Position numbers and translations under genes: made by a program
The notes under the pieces: model-generated
Told to the model about the DNA's origin: nothing
Database searches by the model: none
The model's input: the letters and a program-made list of their open reading frames with translations, nothing else
Shown here: piece after piece, positions 2,276-56,696 of the stretch
How positions within the stretch are numbered: position 1 is the stretch's first letter
How the letters are laid out: the number at the start of each line of letters is the position of its first letter
Assembly: GCA_038314665.1 (NCBI GenBank)
Contig: GCA_038314665.1_3677.1
Source of the DNA: a phage
Reading direction: 5' to 3' (one strand)
Length of the DNA stretch: 64,000 nucleotides

Positions 2276-2536
2276 ATGCGTAAATTGAAAAATTTTGATA
2301 AAGTCGATGTTGTCCTAAATAGTTTTTACTACTGCAATAATAAAGCCGTTTGGTGGCGTGATAGTTCCACCGATAAGGTTAAGGCGCGCTTTCTCCAGGG
2401 GCACTGGCAAGGCCGCCCAGTGATTAAAATCATGGGGCAATTGGTAGCGTTTAAAAATTGCCGCCGTGTTGATGACGTTGAGGAGATTTTAAACATTTTG
2501 CGCCACAATAATTTAAAAAATAGTGTTGACAAGTAA
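2276..2536 (+). CDS. hypothetical protein (86 aa)
   Basis: ORF with AAGGAG RBS. Confidence 0.55.
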   Translation: MRKLKNFDKVDVVLNSFYYCNNKAVWWRDSSTDKVKARFLQGHWQGRPVIKIMGQLVAFKNCRRVDDVEEILNILRHNNLKNSVDK

Positions 2537-2553
2537 ATCTCAATAAGTATAAT
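2526..2553 (+). promoter_or_regulatory. sigma70-like promoter (TTGACA-N16-TATAAT)
   Basis: consensus hexamers; followed by hairpin GGCGGGAAAACTTCCCGCC (2564-2582) and RBS. Confidence 0.65.
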
Positions 2554-2610
2554 TAAACACACAGGCGGGAAAACTTCCCGCCACTAACAAAGAAAACAGG
2601 AGAAAATATC

Positions 2611-3234
2611 ATGACCACCGTTAACATTACCACAGGTTACAATTTATCTTTCGACGTGCTGACCGACGAACAAAAAGAAAAAGCCATTGAAATGGTCCGC
2701 GAAAGAGAAGAACACAGCGGGGATGACTTTTTTGCAGAAAGTGTAATTGAACACTACAAAGAACAAGTTTTTCCAGAGTACGGCCTTGAAGATACCGAAG
2801 TACGTTGGTCCGGCTTTTGGTGCCAGGGTGACGGCGCGTCAATCAGTGCTGAAAACGTGGATTTAGAAAAATTCTTGCGTAAAGTCAAGGCCCTGACCAA
2901 GTTCCGATCAATTCGTCACTTGTTCGGTACAATGCGCGATGGCGAACTATCAGCCAGTGTTGAACGTATCCCGTTTAGCCATTATCACCACGAAAACACA
3001 ATAGGAGGGTGCATCGATACTAATTGGCTAGACCTGACCACCAAGCAAGAGGACAAAGTTGAAGAGCTGGAAGAGCTGATCACCGAGACGGTACGGGAGC
3101 TATCCCGCAAGGTTTACGTAGACCTGGAGGAGGCCTATCTAGAACAGTTCACTACCGAAAACCTGATCGGCCTTATTGAGGCCAATGATTGGCGGTTTGA
3201 TGTGGATGAATATGGGGAGATGAGTTTTTCATAA
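2611..3234 (+). CDS. hypothetical acidic protein (207 aa)
   Basis: ORF with RBS ACAGGAGAAAA; acidic; no confident family assignment. Confidence 0.6.
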   Translation: MTTVNITTGYNLSFDVLTDEQKEKAIEMVREREEHSGDDFFAESVIEHYKEQVFPEYGLEDTEVRWSGFWCQGDGASISAENVDLEKFLRKVKALTKFRSIRHLFGTMRDGELSASVERIPFSHYHHENTIGGCIDTNWLDLTTKQEDKVEELEELITETVRELSRKVYVDLEEAYLEQFTTENLIGLIEANDWRFDVDEYGEMSFS

Positions 3235-27919: not shown

Positions 27920-28032
27920 AGATACTCCGCATCGCATTCAGGGCAATGCCAAATAAAATCGTCCAGTGCCTTGCACCAACGAAGATTGCAACGACAACCG
28001 CACTTGCAAATTTTATAAATACCTGTAGACAT
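27916..28032 (-). CDS. small Cys-rich putative zinc-ribbon protein (38 aa)
   Basis: strong RBS AGGAGG; KICKCGCRC...HCPEC; coupled to nrdG. Confidence 0.4.
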   Translation of the reverse strand: MSTGIYKICKCGCRCNLRWCKALDDFIWHCPECDAEYL

Positions 28033-28093
28033 ACTGTACCTCCTAACTCGCTGTGCCAACAATATGCCACATCCTTGTGGATTTTGTCAAGTA

Positions 28094-29356
28094 TCAGCAA
28101 CCACAACTTCCGTAGTGCTTAACCCGTTCTATAACTTCCGCTTGCTTACCTTTATTGTAAGGACGGGAGTTTGGACTAGACAGGTACCCGGATACACGTC
28201 TGATCACACTGATCGTTCCCTCTTCATGGTTTCCACACTCTGGGCATACAAAGCCTTTAGCTGTTGCACTAAACTCACCAGAGAAACCACACTTGAGACA
28301 TTTATCCACAGGTTGGTTAATACCAAAATACATAATGTGTTTATACCCGAAGTCAACAAGAGCCTCTAAAGCATCTAAATTGTTTTTCAGATTTGGTGTC
28401 TCTACGTATCCGATGTTGCCGCCAGAGGAGATCATAGCAAAACCCTCCTCATACTCCCACTTATCAAAAGGAGAACTATTGATCCACACTGGCTGATGGA
28501 AACTGTTGGTGAGATATTCATGCTCGTGCTTCAACACTTCAGGATATTCACGATCCAGACAGGTTGCAGCTTTATAGCATAGACTCTCAGAAGGGGTGCC
28601 GTACAAGCTAAACGCTAGTCTACTTTCCTTCTTGTATCGCTCACAAGCATCTCTCATGTGCTGGAGTATTCCAAGAGCTAAAGCCTTGTCACCCTCCCTG
28701 CCCAAAATCTGACAGGTTTCATACACACCAATATACCCAATACTGATGGAAGCGTACCCGTCATAGAAGAGTTTATCAATACTCTCTTCAGGATCCAGGC
28801 GAGCAAGAGCGCCTTCACACCACATGATAGGGTTCTGCCCTGCTTTGGTGCCTTTCAGACGGTTAACCCTTACAAGGTGAGCTTCATATGCCAAATCCAG
28901 ATACTCGTCAAGAACGGCAAAGAAATCAACACCTTCCGTCTTAGCTTTTGCCGCAATCATTGGCAGGTTAAGACTAACAACACCCAAGTTGAATCTGCCG
29001 AGGTATTTCTCCTCACCTGTTTCCAAGTCATTGTATTTGCTAAGAAAACTCCGGCAACCCATGCTCGTTACTTTGCCATCTGTCGAGCCTGTCACTTTAC
29101 GATTTAGTGGAACAGAAACAAAGTCAGGATAAATCCTCTCTGCAGAGCATTCCAGAGCTAATCGTTTCAAATCATAGTTAGGATCTCCAGGGTTCATGTT
29201 GACACCCTCTTCTAGGAAGAACAGCACTTTAGGGAACACAGGTGTGATACGTTCTTCACCAAGACCCATTTTGTGGACTTTCAAGTAGTTTTTGGTAATC
29301 ATTCTACCAAAGACTGAGGTATCCAGTCCTAAACTTAATGTGATGAATGGAGTCTG
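28094..29356 (-). CDS. nrdD: anaerobic ribonucleoside-triphosphate reductase, exon 2 (C-terminal part)
   Basis: TPFITLSLGLDTS...EGVNMNPGDPNYDL and C-terminal CxxC..CPEC zinc ribbon plus RVSGY Gly-radical region; exon start inferred from frame, preceding G and alignment to NrdD. Confidence 0.75.
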   Translation of the reverse strand, partial: QTPFITLSLGLDTSVFGRMITKNYLKVHKMGLGEERITPVFPKVLFFLEEGVNMNPGDPNYDLKRLALECSAERIYPDFVSVPLNRKVTGSTDGKVTSMGCRSFLSKYNDLETGEEKYLGRFNLGVVSLNLPMIAAKAKTEGVDFFAVLDEYLDLAYEAHLVRVNRLKGTKAGQNPIMWCEGALARLDPEESIDKLFYDGYASISIGYIGVYETCQILGREGDKALALGILQHMRDACERYKKESRLAFSLYGTPSESLCYKAATCLDREYPEVLKHEHEYLTNSFHQPVWINSSPFDKWEYEEGFAMISSGGNIGYVETPNLKNNLDALEALVDFGYKHIMYFGINQPVDKCLKCGFSGEFSATAKGFVCPECGNHEEGTISVIRRVSGYLSSPNSRPYNKGKQAEVIERVKHYGSCGC

Positions 29357-30154
29357 CTGTCTCCTCCCCTGTGTTTCCACAGGGCCAGACTATCTCTTAC
29401 TCTACTTCAATAAGATAATAACCCTTTATTGTGAGATGCTTACCTTCGGCATTTCCTTCGATAGCCCTATGAACGTTACCTACGTTCAAATTTAAGGCTT
29501 TTGCACAGGCATAGAGTGAAGGATATTCACCCACCAAGGTTTTCCCTTTGTATGCCTGTACTTTCCTATAGCACTTACCTGGACAAAGTCCTGTTCGGAA
29601 AGCATGTCTCTTATTATCTTCCGGCAAAACCCACTCTAGGTTAGACGGATGATCATTCAATGTATTGCCATCTTTATGATTCACTTCCCAGTTTTCAGGG
29701 TCTTCTGGGACATCTGGCAAACAATACAAGGCAACAATCCTTGAGGTTTGGATTCGAATCTTTTTACCTTTGTGGTTGAAAGAGTACATATAACGGCGTT
29801 TAACATGCTTGTTACCTTTTCCATAACCTCCCCACAATATTGGGTGTAGCATTCCACGTTTTCCGTATACGTTTCCGACCTCATCAATCACATAGTTTGA
29901 TTCTTCACCATTAAGAATGATCTTTTTCATAGAGCCTCTCCATTTCGAAGTTAGTATTTCAACTAACCCCTACACTACTTGGTTCAGAAATGTTTGTCAA
30001 GCATCTCTGCCTTTCGTTAGTCGTTACAACCGTTCCAACTCCTGTAAGAACTAGTCACGGGATTGGCATAGCTTTCGCCTTAGCGTTCCCCGTTAGCCGG
30101 ATTTACCGACCCCTCTTATGAGGTTAGGAGAGTTTTACAACGGCCAGTTTGTTA
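29357..30154 (-). other. group I self-splicing intron (IA-like) in nrdD, carrying an HNH homing endonuclease ORF
   Basis: 5' exon ends in U then UAA; guide GCCGUUG complementary to exon end CAACGGU; R-like GTTGTAACGACTAACGAAAG (30011-30030); S-like AAGAGATAGTCTGG (29385-29398); GNRA hairpin CCCTGTG-GAAA-CACAGGG. Confidence 0.75.
29397..29930 (-). CDS. intron-encoded HNH homing endonuclease (177 aa)
   Basis: HNH motif EVNHKDGNTLNDHPSNLEWVLPEDNKRHA; sits between the two halves of nrdD. Confidence 0.75.
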   Translation of the reverse strand: MKKIILNGEESNYVIDEVGNVYGKRGMLHPILWGGYGKGNKHVKRRYMYSFNHKGKKIRIQTSRIVALYCLPDVPEDPENWEVNHKDGNTLNDHPSNLEWVLPEDNKRHAFRTGLCPGKCYRKVQAYKGKTLVGEYPSLYACAKALNLNVGNVHRAIEGNAEGKHLTIKGYYLIEVE

Positions 30155-31015
30155 ACCGTTGACAGAGGTTAACGTATTGATTTGATAGAGCAACGTCTGC
30201 ATGCTGTCAAACACGTCTTTATCTGTCATTTGCATTGCAACAGTCTCAGCATCTGGCAACCAGTGCTCCTGGCAAAATTTAAGATTCTTCTCATAGGTCG
30301 CCTCAGCATACTGTGCCAGATAATGATCAATATGGCTCATAGTCTGACCTCCATATTGAGCACTAGCTACTGCACTAGAGATTTGGCTAAGGATTGTTGT
30401 TGCAACCCCTATTGACTTCGGCTTACTGACATGGGCGTTGCCAATGTTGAATCCGTTTTCCAACATATCTGGATAATTTACCAAACAACAGTTTGTTAAC
30501 GGACTGATCAAGTAGTCAAGATCATGCACATGGATGAAGCCTTTATTGTGCTCTTCTGAGACACGGTCTGGCAGGATCTGTGTTGATGCAAGGTGTTTGC
30601 TAAGGATGCCTGCAAGCAGGTCACGATGAGTGTGTACATGATTGGTAGGCTTATTTGCGTTTTCTTTTGTAAATTCATCACAAGTGCGATCCAAGAAGCC
30701 ACTAATATCTGCAAGCAGTTTTCCACCTGCCTCTCTGTTATTATCTCTTGTCTGCCTATACTGGATGTATTCTCTGGCTGCACATTTTAAACCCATATCC
30801 ATAAGAGCGTCTTCAACAAGGATATGGATATTTTTTACAGAGATCGTGCACTGGTCGGTTGGTAGATTGTTAGCAACAACTTCATTAACCGCGCAGGCGA
30901 TCCGGTAAGCTTCTTCTTCAGTATGTCCAGACTCAAGTAAGGCGGACTCTGCCGCCTTGATCACCTTAATTCCGTTATAGACCTCTTCTCTACCGTCCCG
31001 TTTTACAACTTTCAC
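30155..31015 (-). CDS. nrdD: anaerobic ribonucleoside-triphosphate reductase, exon 1 (ATP-cone N-terminal part)
   Basis: VVKRDGREEVYNGIKV ATP-cone start; ORF ends at the UAA that begins the intron. Confidence 0.75.
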
Positions 31016-31290
31016 TTTTTCTCTCCAAAATCATTCTTAACAAAAGAGATGAAATCGTCGGCACCACCTACATGGACACTATCAAGATCGCTTTCTAAGA
31101 AGATCTGCGGTAACGTTCTTGGGACGATTGGACTACACTTCTCAATAAGCTCTTCTTTTGTGTATCCCTCTCCAAGTGTCTTATATACAAAAGGCAGACC
31201 TTTACTGACTGCAAATTCTTTTGCTCTTACACAATGTGGGCAGTTATCTTTACCGTAAATAATAAAGAAAAAAGATTTTTCACAGCTCAT
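31012..31290 (-). CDS. glutaredoxin / NrdH-like redoxin (92 aa)
   Basis: CPHC active site in a thioredoxin-fold context, adjacent to nrdB. Confidence 0.7.
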   Translation of the reverse strand: MSCEKSFFFIIYGKDNCPHCVRAKEFAVSKGLPFVYKTLGEGYTKEELIEKCSPIVPRTLPQIFLESDLDSVHVGGADDFISFVKNDFGEKK

Positions 31291-53908: not shown

Positions 53909-53983
53909 GCCCTGTTAGCTTAGTGGATAAAGCAGCGGCCTTCTAAGCCGTTGACACTGGTTCGAGTCCAGTACGGGGTGCCA
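53909..53983 (+). tRNA. tRNA-Arg (anticodon TCT)
   Basis: manual cloverleaf: acceptor GCCCTGT/ACGGGGT, anticodon loop CTTCTAA, T-loop TTCGAGT, encoded CCA. Confidence 0.75.
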
Positions 53984-54113
53984 AGTTCTTTTTAATGTAG
54001 CTTACTTTAGCAGAGTAAATCTTCGGCAAGTGGCGGTAACCACTTTACCGATACCTCATAGTTAGTGGTGAGAACACTAGCTATTTTAAAAAGAATTTAA
54101 ATATTAGTATTTA

Positions 54114-54201
54114 GGTGAGTTAATTCCGTAGGGGTAGCGGGGCAGACTGTAAATCTGTTATCATTGCGATTCGGGTGGTTCGACTCCATCACTCACCACC
54201 A
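54114..54201 (+). tRNA. tRNA-Tyr (anticodon GTA)
   Basis: acceptor GGTGAGT/ACTCACC, anticodon loop CTGTAAA, long variable arm, CCA. Confidence 0.8.
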
Positions 54202-54315
54202 AATTTATATTTTTAAATGCATAAATCATACAGATAATGGCATTGATATTTATCGTCGTTTATACTAGTCACTAACTGCTCGAAAATCAGTGTCATTATC
54301 AGTATAATTTATAAA

Positions 54316-54406
54316 GGAGGGTAGGGAGCAATGGTGCTCAAGCGGTCTTGAAAACCGTCCCATTGAGGATGACTCGATGATGGTTCGATTCCATTACTCT
54401 CCGCCA
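54316..54406 (+). tRNA. tRNA-Ser (anticodon TGA)
   Basis: acceptor GGAGGGT/ACTCTCC, anticodon loop CTTGAAA, long variable arm, CCA. Confidence 0.75.
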
Positions 54407-54504
54407 CATTGTTGACCTTGTAATTAAGCGAAAGCCGGAAGCAGAACCGGATTATCAAATGTTACAGTCGTCATCGCCGACTAGCAACATGGTCAACATA
54501 CTGA

Positions 54505-54603
54505 GCTAGGTAAGCCCTTTGGCAAGGGCGAGGATTTTTAATCCTGAAAATAGACGAGGTAGTCGTTGAATACATAGGTGGTTCGATTCCACCGCCTAGC
54601 ACC
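54505..54603 (+). tRNA. atypical tRNA-like gene (99 nt), anticodon possibly TTT
   Basis: acceptor GCTAGGT/GCCTAGC and T-arm GGTGG-TTCGATT-CCACC are clear; loop TTTTTAA on a short stem; about 30 nt between anticodon arm and T-arm. Confidence 0.4.
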
Positions 54604-54608
54604 TTTTT

Positions 54609-54684
54609 GCTGATGTAGCACAATTGGCAGTGCAATTGATTTGTAATCAATAGGTTGCAGGTTCAAGTCCTGCCATCAGCACCA
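54609..54684 (+). tRNA. tRNA-Thr (anticodon TGT)
   Basis: acceptor GCTGATG/CATCAGC, anticodon loop TTTGTAA, T-loop TTCAAGT, CCA. Confidence 0.8.
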
Positions 54685-54685
54685 A

Positions 54686-54760
54686 GGCCCTGTAGCTGGA
54701 AGGTTCAAGCAAGCGACTCATAATCGCCAGACGGTGGTTCAATTCCACCCAGGGCCACCA
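54686..54760 (+). tRNA. tRNA-Met (anticodon CAT; elongator Met or Ile2 type)
   Basis: acceptor GGCCCTG/CAGGGCC, anticodon loop CTCATAA, CCA. Confidence 0.7.
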
Positions 54761-54771
54761 AATGGTAAATA

Positions 54772-54848
54772 CTCCGCGTAGCTCAGCTTGGTAGAGCGCC
54801 TGATTTGGGATCAGGAGGTCGAGTGTTCGAATCACTCCGTGGAGACCA
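54772..54848 (+). tRNA. tRNA-Pro (anticodon TGG)
   Basis: acceptor CTCCGCG/CGTGGAG with C1-G72, anticodon loop TTTGGGA, T-loop TTCGAAT, CCA. Confidence 0.8.
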
Positions 54849-55952: not shown

Positions 55953-56377
55953 TGTCTAAGATTTACGGACCGTGTTCTGAAAAGCAGAAGATGATCCTAG
56001 AAAACGATGCAGATATTTTGGTAATCGGAGGTGCCGCAGGGTCTGGCAAGTCGTTCCTCTTGCAGTTGATGCCACTTAAAATTATTGATGACCCCCACAG
56101 CTCTGTGGTTATGTTCCGAAGAACAACCCCACAGTTGGAAGGTGAGGGTGGACTATGGCCTAAAGCAGTAGCTATTTATAGTGATCTGCCTGAAAACATT
56201 AAGCCAAAGTTCAGAGAGAAGGATCATAAGTTCATTTTTCCACGGTTTGATCCGAACACTGGTAAGTGGGATAGAAGCAAAAAGGGGGCTGTTGTAAAAT
56301 ACTGCCACATGGAGTATGTACAAGATAAGCTTAACCACCAGGGGCTTGAGTACACCATGGTTTGCTTCGATGAGGGT
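55952..56377 (+). CDS. terL: terminase large subunit, exon 1 (ATPase N-terminal part)
   Basis: Walker A GGAAGSGKS and Walker B MVCFDE; ORF ends at the UAA that begins the intron. Confidence 0.8.
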
Positions 56378-56696
56378 TAATTTGTAGCTCTCGTAAAACC
56401 TCCCTAATTGCGGGGAAATCTTTATTATTGACACCACCAACCTGTTATGGTAACATAATAGAGGCTTCGAAGAGAGATCGAAGGTATGGTAACAGTGTGT
56501 TAATTTAGATAATCCGCAGCGAAGCATCCGATAGGATGAACGTTCAACGACTAGTCGAAAGACGTAGAATCAAGCGATTCGAAACGGGAGGGTAAGCGGT
56601 TGTTGTCGCTTATAAGATATAGTCTGGTCTGCATGGAGACATGCAGCTGCCTGAAAATGGCGGGGCAAGACTAGCGACCTTGCCCGAACATAAACG
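56378..56696 (+). other. group I self-splicing intron (IA-like, no ORF) in the terminase large-subunit gene
   Basis: P-like AATTGCGGGGAAA 56406-56418, Q-like AATCCGCAGC 56511-56520, R-like GTTCAACGACTAGTCGAAAG 56542-56561, S-like AAGATATAGTCTGG 56614-56627; guide GCTCTC 56387-56392; ends in G. Confidence 0.8.

Follow-up and report, generated by a model that had tools for sequence, protein, structure and literature searches.

Evidence for a mobile group I intron carrying an HNH endonuclease gene in nrdD of a Vequintavirus

One described system close to the locus reported here is the nrdD (sunY) intron of phage T4, a group I intron of subgroup IA that interrupts the same gene within the same conserved part of NrdD. 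Its first bases are UAA, its leader reads GUAAAAUCUGCC-UAA, and helices lie between P7 and P3′, features that the intron described below has as well. The T4 intron is 1033 nt long, its ORF lies near the 3′ end and not in P8, and its product I-TevII is annotated as a member of the GIY-YIG family, not as an HNH protein. For the endonuclease, the best relative of solved structure is I-HmuI from the DNA polymerase intron of Bacillus phage SPO1, which is a strand-specific nicking enzyme. In a survey of phage ribonucleotide reductase genes, nrdD was the gene most often split (PMC3653736). HNH introns in terL, the DNA polymerase gene, nrdA and nrdB of the related Certrevirus CB7 splice as judged by RT-PCR, and one HNH insertion of the same phage does not splice (PMC7344957), so that an HNH insertion in a gene is no guarantee of splicing. 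For the rV5-like phages, the rV5 genome paper described introns in terL only (PMC3606486), and the authors of the BASEL collection annotated intron boundaries via genome comparison (PMC8594841). The BASEL GenBank records give nrdD as a joined coding sequence at exactly the junction described here, together with a 'putative homing endonuclease'. Our literature search returned no paper that describes how the RNA of the Vequintavirus nrdD intron folds or shows that it splices.

The analysed stretch of phage DNA (the window, 64,000 nt) belongs to an rV5-like E. coli phage of the genus Vequintavirus. About 120 records of rV5-like E. coli phages, such as MaxBurger, FFH2, FV3 and slur16, share 94-98% identity with the window over the nrdD region (28000-31100). 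The neighbourhood on the minus strand consists of nrdG, nrdD, a glutaredoxin gene, nrdB and nrdA, and all nrdD features given below lie on this strand. Exon 1 of nrdD (30155-31015, from the ORF list) encodes the ATP-cone and the first part of the NRDD domain. It starts with a GTG at 31015, which overlaps the glutaredoxin stop, and ends with UCU GUC AAC GGU (...SVNG) at 30155, followed by an in-frame UAA at 30154-30152. Exon 2 (28094-29356) encodes the catalytic and glycyl-radical part, begins with CAG ACU (QT...) and is collinear with T4 NrdD (...SSNGQTPF...). Pfam recognised the ATP-cone (54.5 bits) and positions 1-154 of the NRDD profile in exon 1, and positions 155-562 together with Gly_radical in exon 2; the NRDD profile thus continues unbroken over the splice junction, from 154 to 155.

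The intervening 798 nt (29357-30154) open with the in-frame UAA and have G as their last base. This stretch is exactly missing from the intron-less alleles of the sister phages C15 and DrSchubert, and in the alignment with C15 both flanks match and exactly 798 nt are absent. Joining 30155 to 29356 produces UCUGUCAACGGU/CAGACUCCAUUC (here and below the slash marks the junction), which is in frame and encodes SVNG/QTPF. The C15 junction, UCUGUCAACGGG/CAAACUCCAUUC, has the same length as the spliced junction of the window and also encodes SVNG/QTPF. The 50 codons around the junction encode an identical protein in all six alleles compared, of which three contain the HNH intron, two an ORF-less intron and one no intron. 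The MaxBurger and AlexBoehm proteins spliced at this junction correspond letter for letter to GenBank QXV82698.1 and QXV75731.1. The boundaries at 29357-30154 are therefore confirmed far beyond chance, and removal of the insert restores a conserved reading frame. The first-pass annotation had put the intron at exactly these positions and the true start of exon 2 at 29356, giving VNG/QTPF. The former agrees with the C15 alignment, the Pfam continuity and the joined GenBank proteins, the latter with the intron-less alleles and with T4 NrdD (SSNGQTPF), and the comparison with intron-less homologues (C15 and DrSchubert) mapped the insertion to the very base proposed.

The insertion site is not that of T4. 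The T4 intron splits the Tyr codon of ...QAYE-Y-EVNTLFSSNGQTPF, 32 nt upstream of the site in the window, which follows the Gly of the aligned ...TLLYQINTLTSVNG/QTPF. The two ribozymes are only weakly alike: in global alignments against shuffled sequences the nrdD intron reached z 3.0-4.5 with T4 sunY-type introns. The T4 and window introns entered this conserved stretch by separate insertions. The parallel with T4 drawn earlier holds in that T4 has an intron in nrdD, and fails for the site and for the endonuclease, which are different.

The elements of the ribozyme listed in the first-pass annotation (junction, guide, R and S elements, GAAA-capped hairpin and ORF) were all found where it had placed them on the minus strand. 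P1 is formed by the last 7 nt of exon 1, CAACGGU (30161-30155), and the internal guide GCCGUUG (30138-30144), fully complementary to them over 7 bp and leaving a U·G pair at the 5′ splice site. P1 covaries, as type B (ORF-less) alleles have AAACGGU in the exon and GCCGUUU in the guide, a compensatory change from C:G to A:U. In type A alleles, the exon CAG at +1 to +3 could pair with CUG beside the guide as a putative P10. The 5′ strand of P3, CUCUCC (30127-30132), pairs with GGAGAG at 29941-29936. Two extra hairpins, CCUC-AUAA-GAGG and GUCGG-UAAAU-CCGGC (30096-30123), both of them covarying, stand between P3 and J3/4. They are followed by the P4-P5 domain, ACGGGG ... GGC-GAAA-GCU ... UCCCGU (30057-30093), which matches low-GC phage introns at 85-93% and shows a compensatory change from G:C to U:A in P5a. 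The P6/P6a hairpin (30032-30056) comes from the minimum-energy folds; its stem differs between the two types and pairs in each, as GUUCUUAC/GUUGGAAC in type A and GCUUCAC/GUGAGGC in type B.

The R element and the 5′ strand of P7, GUUGUAACGACUA followed by ACGAAAG, lie at 30011-30030, where GACUA pairs with UAGUC at 29392-29388. P7 and P4 are invariant in all six introns of the alignment described below. Peripheral helices occupy 29947-30009, between P7 and P3′, and include an 8-bp hairpin (30009-29985) and P7.2 (29970-29947). P7.2 is clear in the window intron, and seven of its nine pairs are double-changed across the six introns; P7.1 is weak in this copy, consisting of just C-GAAA-G, with the extra 8-bp hairpin after it. 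The 3′ strand of P3, GGAGAG (29936-29941), is at the same time the Shine-Dalgarno-like sequence of the HNH ORF, which sits in the loop of the P8 stem formed by GCUCUAU (29935-29929) and GUAGAGU (29405-29399). The S element with the 3′ strand of P7, AAGAGAUAGUCUGG (29385-29398), was aligned to the Rfam consensus AAGAUAUAGUC and overlaps the UAA stop codon of the ORF (29399-29397). The intron closes at 29357-29384 with P9, CCCUGUG-GAAA-CACAGGG (hairpin 29384-29367), and the 3′ tail GAGGAGACAG, which ends in the terminal G at 29357. In P9, six of the seven pairs are double-changed across the six introns.

To Rfam the intron is a faint target. At gathering thresholds, the search of the window recovered the terL intron and five tRNAs and missed the nrdD intron. 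Model RF00028 gave 27.7 bits for the window intron, under the gathering score of 50, in an alignment distorted by the 534-nt ORF, and the permissive alignment is informative for the S element and P9 only. Rfam was the check that the first-pass annotation had proposed. The ORF-less AlexBoehm allele (257 nt) matched the full model with 29.8 bits (E 2.6e-4), a score that also falls short of 50. Free of its ORF, the intron measures about 257-282 nt. Minimum-energy folding without guidance, applied to this ORF-less allele and to the window intron minus the ORF interior, recovered P1, P3, P4-P5, P6, P7.2, P8 and P9, including the long-range P3, with GAAA loops in P4-P5 and P9 of both. Against shuffled sequences the folds had z scores of -4.0 (ORF-less allele) and -5.7 (ORF-deleted window intron).

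For covariation, we aligned six introns: that of the window, two ORF-less variants and three low-GC phage introns found via the common P4-P5 domain. The alignment was registered helix by helix by hand between invariant anchors, with N padding, and so leans towards the proposed helices. All 333 of 333 cells were standard pairs, a value that is partly due to this construction, and 33 of the 67 pairs were double-changed, a count that in P3, P7.2, P8, P9 and the extra hairpins is not. When the 3′ partners were slid by one to three columns, at most seven double changes were left, and in 500 shuffles values as high as those observed never occurred. In P3, four of the six pairs were double-changed. 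An intein was considered and rejected, since the insert opens with a stop codon and its ORF has a start of its own and is flanked by non-coding structured RNA. In line with the first-pass annotation, we conclude from the U·G pair in P1, the terminal G and the covarying P3-P9 core that the insert in nrdD belongs to the group I introns and, within these, to phage subgroup IA. This second assignment is looser than the first, as P7.2 is clear and P7.1 weak.

The 177-aa ORF in the P8 loop (29397-29930, minus strand) encodes an HNH homing endonuclease, as had been proposed. It matched Pfam HNH_3 with 29.3 bits (cut-off 24.8), contains the motif sequence NHKDGN...SNLEW...EDN and belongs with PHROG 59 (E 1.5e-26). 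The closest solved relative is I-HmuI (PDB 1U3E), aligned near end to end (residues 8-160 of our protein with 8-159 of the 174 aa) and with the HNH core ...HKDGN...NL.W... in both. The similarity is distant (E 2.7e-4), and the match to the NUMOD-like C-terminal domain of I-HmuI is weak, with 18.4 bits under a cut-off of 27. The identical protein was found on 138 contigs. Copies with at least 95% identity occur in Vequintavirus nrdD only, and the next relatives are 30-40% identical.

The ORF is tightly embedded in the ribozyme. Its AUG overlaps the 5′ strand of P8, and its last two codons form the 3′ strand (GUAGAG), with the UAA right after. The only Shine-Dalgarno-like sequence upstream of the AUG is the GGAGAG of P3, whose GGAG core lies 8 nt before the start codon, and no sigma-70-type promoter for the ORF was recognised within the intron. 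Once the ribozyme has folded, the ribosome-binding site and the start codon should be inaccessible. With the ribosome-binding site in the 3′ strand of P3 and the start and stop in P8, the RNA is expected either to be translated into endonuclease or to fold into the ribozyme, and not to do both at once. Concealment of the ribosome-binding site or start by intron folding is a known theme for intron-encoded endonucleases (PMC3984707).

Taken together, a mobile group I intron of phage subgroup IA very probably occupies 29357-30154 in a Vequintavirus nrdD. The analysis shows its boundaries, its fold, the domains of its protein and its variable presence among relatives. From the sequence we infer its splicing, the activity and target of the endonuclease, and homing; most likely, the intron splices to yield a 707-aa NrdD and spreads by homing. 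In the folded RNA, CAACGGU at the exon end would pair with the guide GCCGUUG, and a free guanosine bound at P7 would attack on the 3′ side of the U at 30155. In a second step, the terminal G (29357) would replace this guanosine at P7 and the exons would be ligated as GGU/CAG, giving an mRNA for the full 707-aa NrdD. On unspliced RNA, ribosomes would be halted by the in-frame UAA with which the intron opens. In a mixed infection, the I-HmuI-like endonuclease would nick or cut an intron-less nrdD near NG/QTPF, and repair from the intron-bearing genome would copy the intron together with adjacent exon bases.

A different explanation is that a free-standing HNH gene has split nrdD and that two products assemble without any splicing, for which the NrdA of Aeromonas phage Aeh1, split by mobE, has been discussed as a precedent (PMC7344957). 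Splicing at our locus is deduced from sequence, many GenBank records annotate two nrdD fragments, the Rfam scores are below threshold, and CB7_245 is a reported HNH insertion that does not splice. Against these points, a 257-nt element without ORF occupies the identical site and has the same 5′ half, the RNA flanking the ORF has a covarying group I core, and the boundaries of the insert coincide with the U·G pair of P1 and the terminal G. Moreover, a separately translated exon 2 would lack a plausible start codon. The ORF list begins it with the GTG at 29380, which has no ribosome-binding site and falls inside the P9 stem, so that it does belong to intron structure as the earlier reading had it, and the next in-frame ATG is 20 codons into conserved sequence. 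We consider such a split gene very unlikely.

Similarly unlikely is a decayed intron that no longer splices, with nrdD persisting as a pseudogene that is tolerated since the aerobic nrdAB is present. The weak P7.1, the extra hairpin and the low Rfam scores would suit this explanation, and nrdA and nrdB are indeed intact next door. However, all exon differences near the site are synonymous among the six alleles, both exons keep full Pfam domain matches, and the core helices pair in every aligned intron and covary. The identity of the HNH protein across its 138 contigs also speaks against decay.

The state of the nrdD site varies among close relatives, in keeping with the mobile intron that we favour. 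About 76 sister genomes are intron-less at this site, next to 28 with the HNH intron and 14 with the ORF-less one, and genomes with differing intron state are about 94-98% identical over the nrdD region. MaxBurger (MZ501093), FFH2, FV3 and slur16 have the same HNH ORF at the same site and no substantive difference from the window; the 3′ tail of the MaxBurger intron lacks 1 nt. The AlexBoehm-type ORF-less intron (257 nt, 14 records) shares the site, the architecture and P9 with the window intron. Its first approximately 139 nt are 86% identical and its P7′/P9 end is also alike, whereas the region from P7.1 to P8 is unalignable, and compensatory changes are seen in P1, P3, P6 and P9. A simple deletion of the HNH form as its origin was rejected, as the likeness is confined to the approximately 139-nt 5′ part and the P7′/P9 end.

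The exon bases beside the site differ with intron state. Every intron-bearing allele examined has GGT at -1, and the U·G pair depends on this U. In the three intron-less alleles that were read (C15, A12a by identity, and DrSchubert) the codon is GGG and the junction GGG CAA. All intron-less records have at least two mismatches to the spliced junction, and the two in DrSchubert are exactly at -1 and +3. A scan of IMG/VR with a degenerate pattern for intron-less junctions gave no match, and this collection is apparently poor in Vequintavirus nrdD. In alleles with the ORF-less type, synonymous changes are dense near the site, from about 35 nt upstream of it to 12 nt downstream, as one would expect if neighbouring exon sequence moved along with the intron. 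For site-specific cleavage of the intron-less allele, these linked exon changes and the variable presence of the intron are indirect evidence.

The terL gene of the window is also interrupted. Rfam placed its intron at 56368-56646 (84.3 bits), and comparison with the intron-less terL of AlexBoehm fixed it at 56378-56696, 319 nt. It directly follows the Walker B residues (...MVCFDEG/TQFEW), and synonymous differences between the alleles lie at -1, +3 and +6. The first-pass annotation had described the nrdD and terL introns as one family shared within the genome, the latter without a homing gene. The second statement applies to the copy in the window and not to this intron as such, because sister phages carry an endonuclease VII-like ORF in it. 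The first one is not supported. In global alignments against shuffles, the nrdD intron (either type, ORF-free) reached z 1.5-1.7 with the terL intron, whereas the terL intron reached z 11.4 with T4 sunY and 7.8 with the second nrdD intron of sequence L008. In blastn searches of the nrdD or terL intron against 50,697 phage records, neither ever matched the other, and many of these records carry both. The GGU/UAA junction, the leader GUAAAAyCUsCC-UAA and the R and S elements are likewise present in the T4 nrdD (sunY) intron; the motifs that the nrdD and terL introns have in common are generic to phage subgroup IA introns. The two also segregate independently: FV3 has the nrdD HNH intron and no terL intron, C15 has a terL intron with ORF and no nrdD intron, and AlexBoehm has the ORF-less nrdD intron without the terL intron. 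That the two are recent copies of one intron spread within the genome, as the common GGU/UAA start, the leader GUAAAAC(C)UCC then UAA, the similar R and S elements and the helices between P7 and P3′ might suggest, is the least probable explanation of all in view of these alignment scores, the missing blastn cross-matches, the leader and junction of T4 sunY, the independent segregation, and the two hairpins between P3 and P4 and different P4-P6 domain of the nrdD intron.

These two hairpins are an unusual part of the structure. They are not known to belong to the IA2 pattern, and we know of no helices described between P3 and J3/4. A literature search for a name of helices between P3 and P4 ('P3.1') found none in the papers covered. 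The same pair is present in introns of Bacillus phage S4-2, of two IMG/VR contigs (L009 and L010) and of Enterococcus phage ECP3, and is absent from the introns of terL, T4 sunY, Bacillus phage W.Ph. and Vibrio phage K470, several of which carry the same P4-P5 module. The S4-2, ECP3 (in a ribonucleotide reductase gene) and two IMG/VR introns have P4-P5 domains 85-93% identical to that of the nrdD intron. These low-GC phage introns follow the same order of P3, two hairpins, UAA and P4, and have P7.2, P8 and P9 like the nrdD intron. They differ in lying in other host genes, in having GIY-YIG or HNH ORFs in P6 and not in P8, and in their canonical P7.1.

It is possible, and we put it forward tentatively as the less likely outcome, that the nrdD intron represents a structural subclass of phage subgroup IA introns that has yet to be described and in which, in addition, the use of the P3 3′ strand as ribosome-binding site makes translation of the endonuclease and splicing mutually exclusive. 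If so, its mark would be the two covarying hairpins between the P3 5′ strand and J3/4, joined to a P4-P5 module that conventionally built introns contain as well. The subclass would be common to E. coli Vequintaviruses and to Bacillus and Enterococcus phages, and would suggest that ribozyme parts have been exchanged as modules and introns transferred across host phyla.

As a whole, the nrdD intron is an ordinary kind of phage mobile element that is already annotated in sister genomes; its novelty is low and it leaves current understanding unchanged. It fits the familiar pattern of homing introns that target conserved motifs of phage ribonucleotide reductases and terminases. For annotation, the two nrdD ORFs and the HNH ORF of the window are better given as one spliced 707-aa NrdD and an intron-encoded endonuclease, a point that matters as many public records list two or three nrdD fragments. 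The Vequintaviruses are a convenient group for study, as they offer intron-less, ORF-less and endonuclease-bearing (HNH) alleles of nrdD, and likewise of terL, many of them in the BASEL collection. These alleles would allow direct tests of homing, of the co-conversion of flanking exons and of the role of the extra hairpins.

The terL gene of the window is interrupted by a group I intron of 319 nt (56378-56696, plus strand), which is inserted just past the Walker B residues (...MVCFDEG/TQFEW) and here carries no ORF. In sister phages this intron occurs in three states: it is absent, it is ORF-less as in the window, or it is about 564 nt longer and contains an endonuclease VII-like ORF. The insertion site reads GGT/ACA CAA in the window, whereas the intron-less allele has GGC ACG CAG. 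The intron resembles the T4 nrdD (sunY) intron with a z score of 11.4, and the likeness extends to the 3′ tail past P9. Five tRNA genes (Rfam, 39-77 bits) form a cluster at 53909-54845 on the plus strand, upstream of the terminase region.

Some Vequintaviruses have a second nrdD intron at ...TSMG/CRSF..., next to what we take to be the conserved active-site cysteine. It encodes a 170-aa ORF in phage phita32 (about 2344-3140 of the phita32 sequence, L004) and is ORF-less, at 251 nt, in an IMG/VR contig (L008). The latter form shares 79% identity with the T4 sunY ribozyme, but the T4 intron is inserted at a different site. The window lacks the second intron, and its empty site lies between 29057 and 29056.

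Regarding the start region of nrdD (30802-31015, minus strand), the records of the BASEL phage collection begin at an internal ATG, giving 636 aa. The ORF extends upstream to GTG 31015, which overlaps the glutaredoxin stop, and the first 91 residues from this codon form a clear ATP-cone domain (54.5 bits). A 707-aa form of NrdD is annotated in other records (phage nimi).

About 19 GenBank MG0656xx records (e.g. phage C15) are named 'Campylobacter phage', are marked UNVERIFIED and have no annotation. Those read were at least 95% identical to the nrdD region of the window, and the records are classified under Vequintavirus (FFH2). The Campylobacter host label looks doubtful.

The window nrdD intron is 798 nt long, versus 797 nt in MaxBurger and phita32; comparison with a sister-phage sequence (L001) placed a one-G length difference in the 3′ tail, directly past P9 (29357-29366, minus strand). 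Two covarying hairpins (30096-30123, minus strand) lie between the P3 5′ strand and J3/4, where, to our knowledge, no group I helices have been described. The P4-P5 module recurs without them in two other introns (L013 and L014). The same two-hairpin arrangement was found in four related introns (L007, L009, L010 and L012), and hairpins at this position are common to the window nrdD intron and introns from Bacillus and Enterococcus phages.
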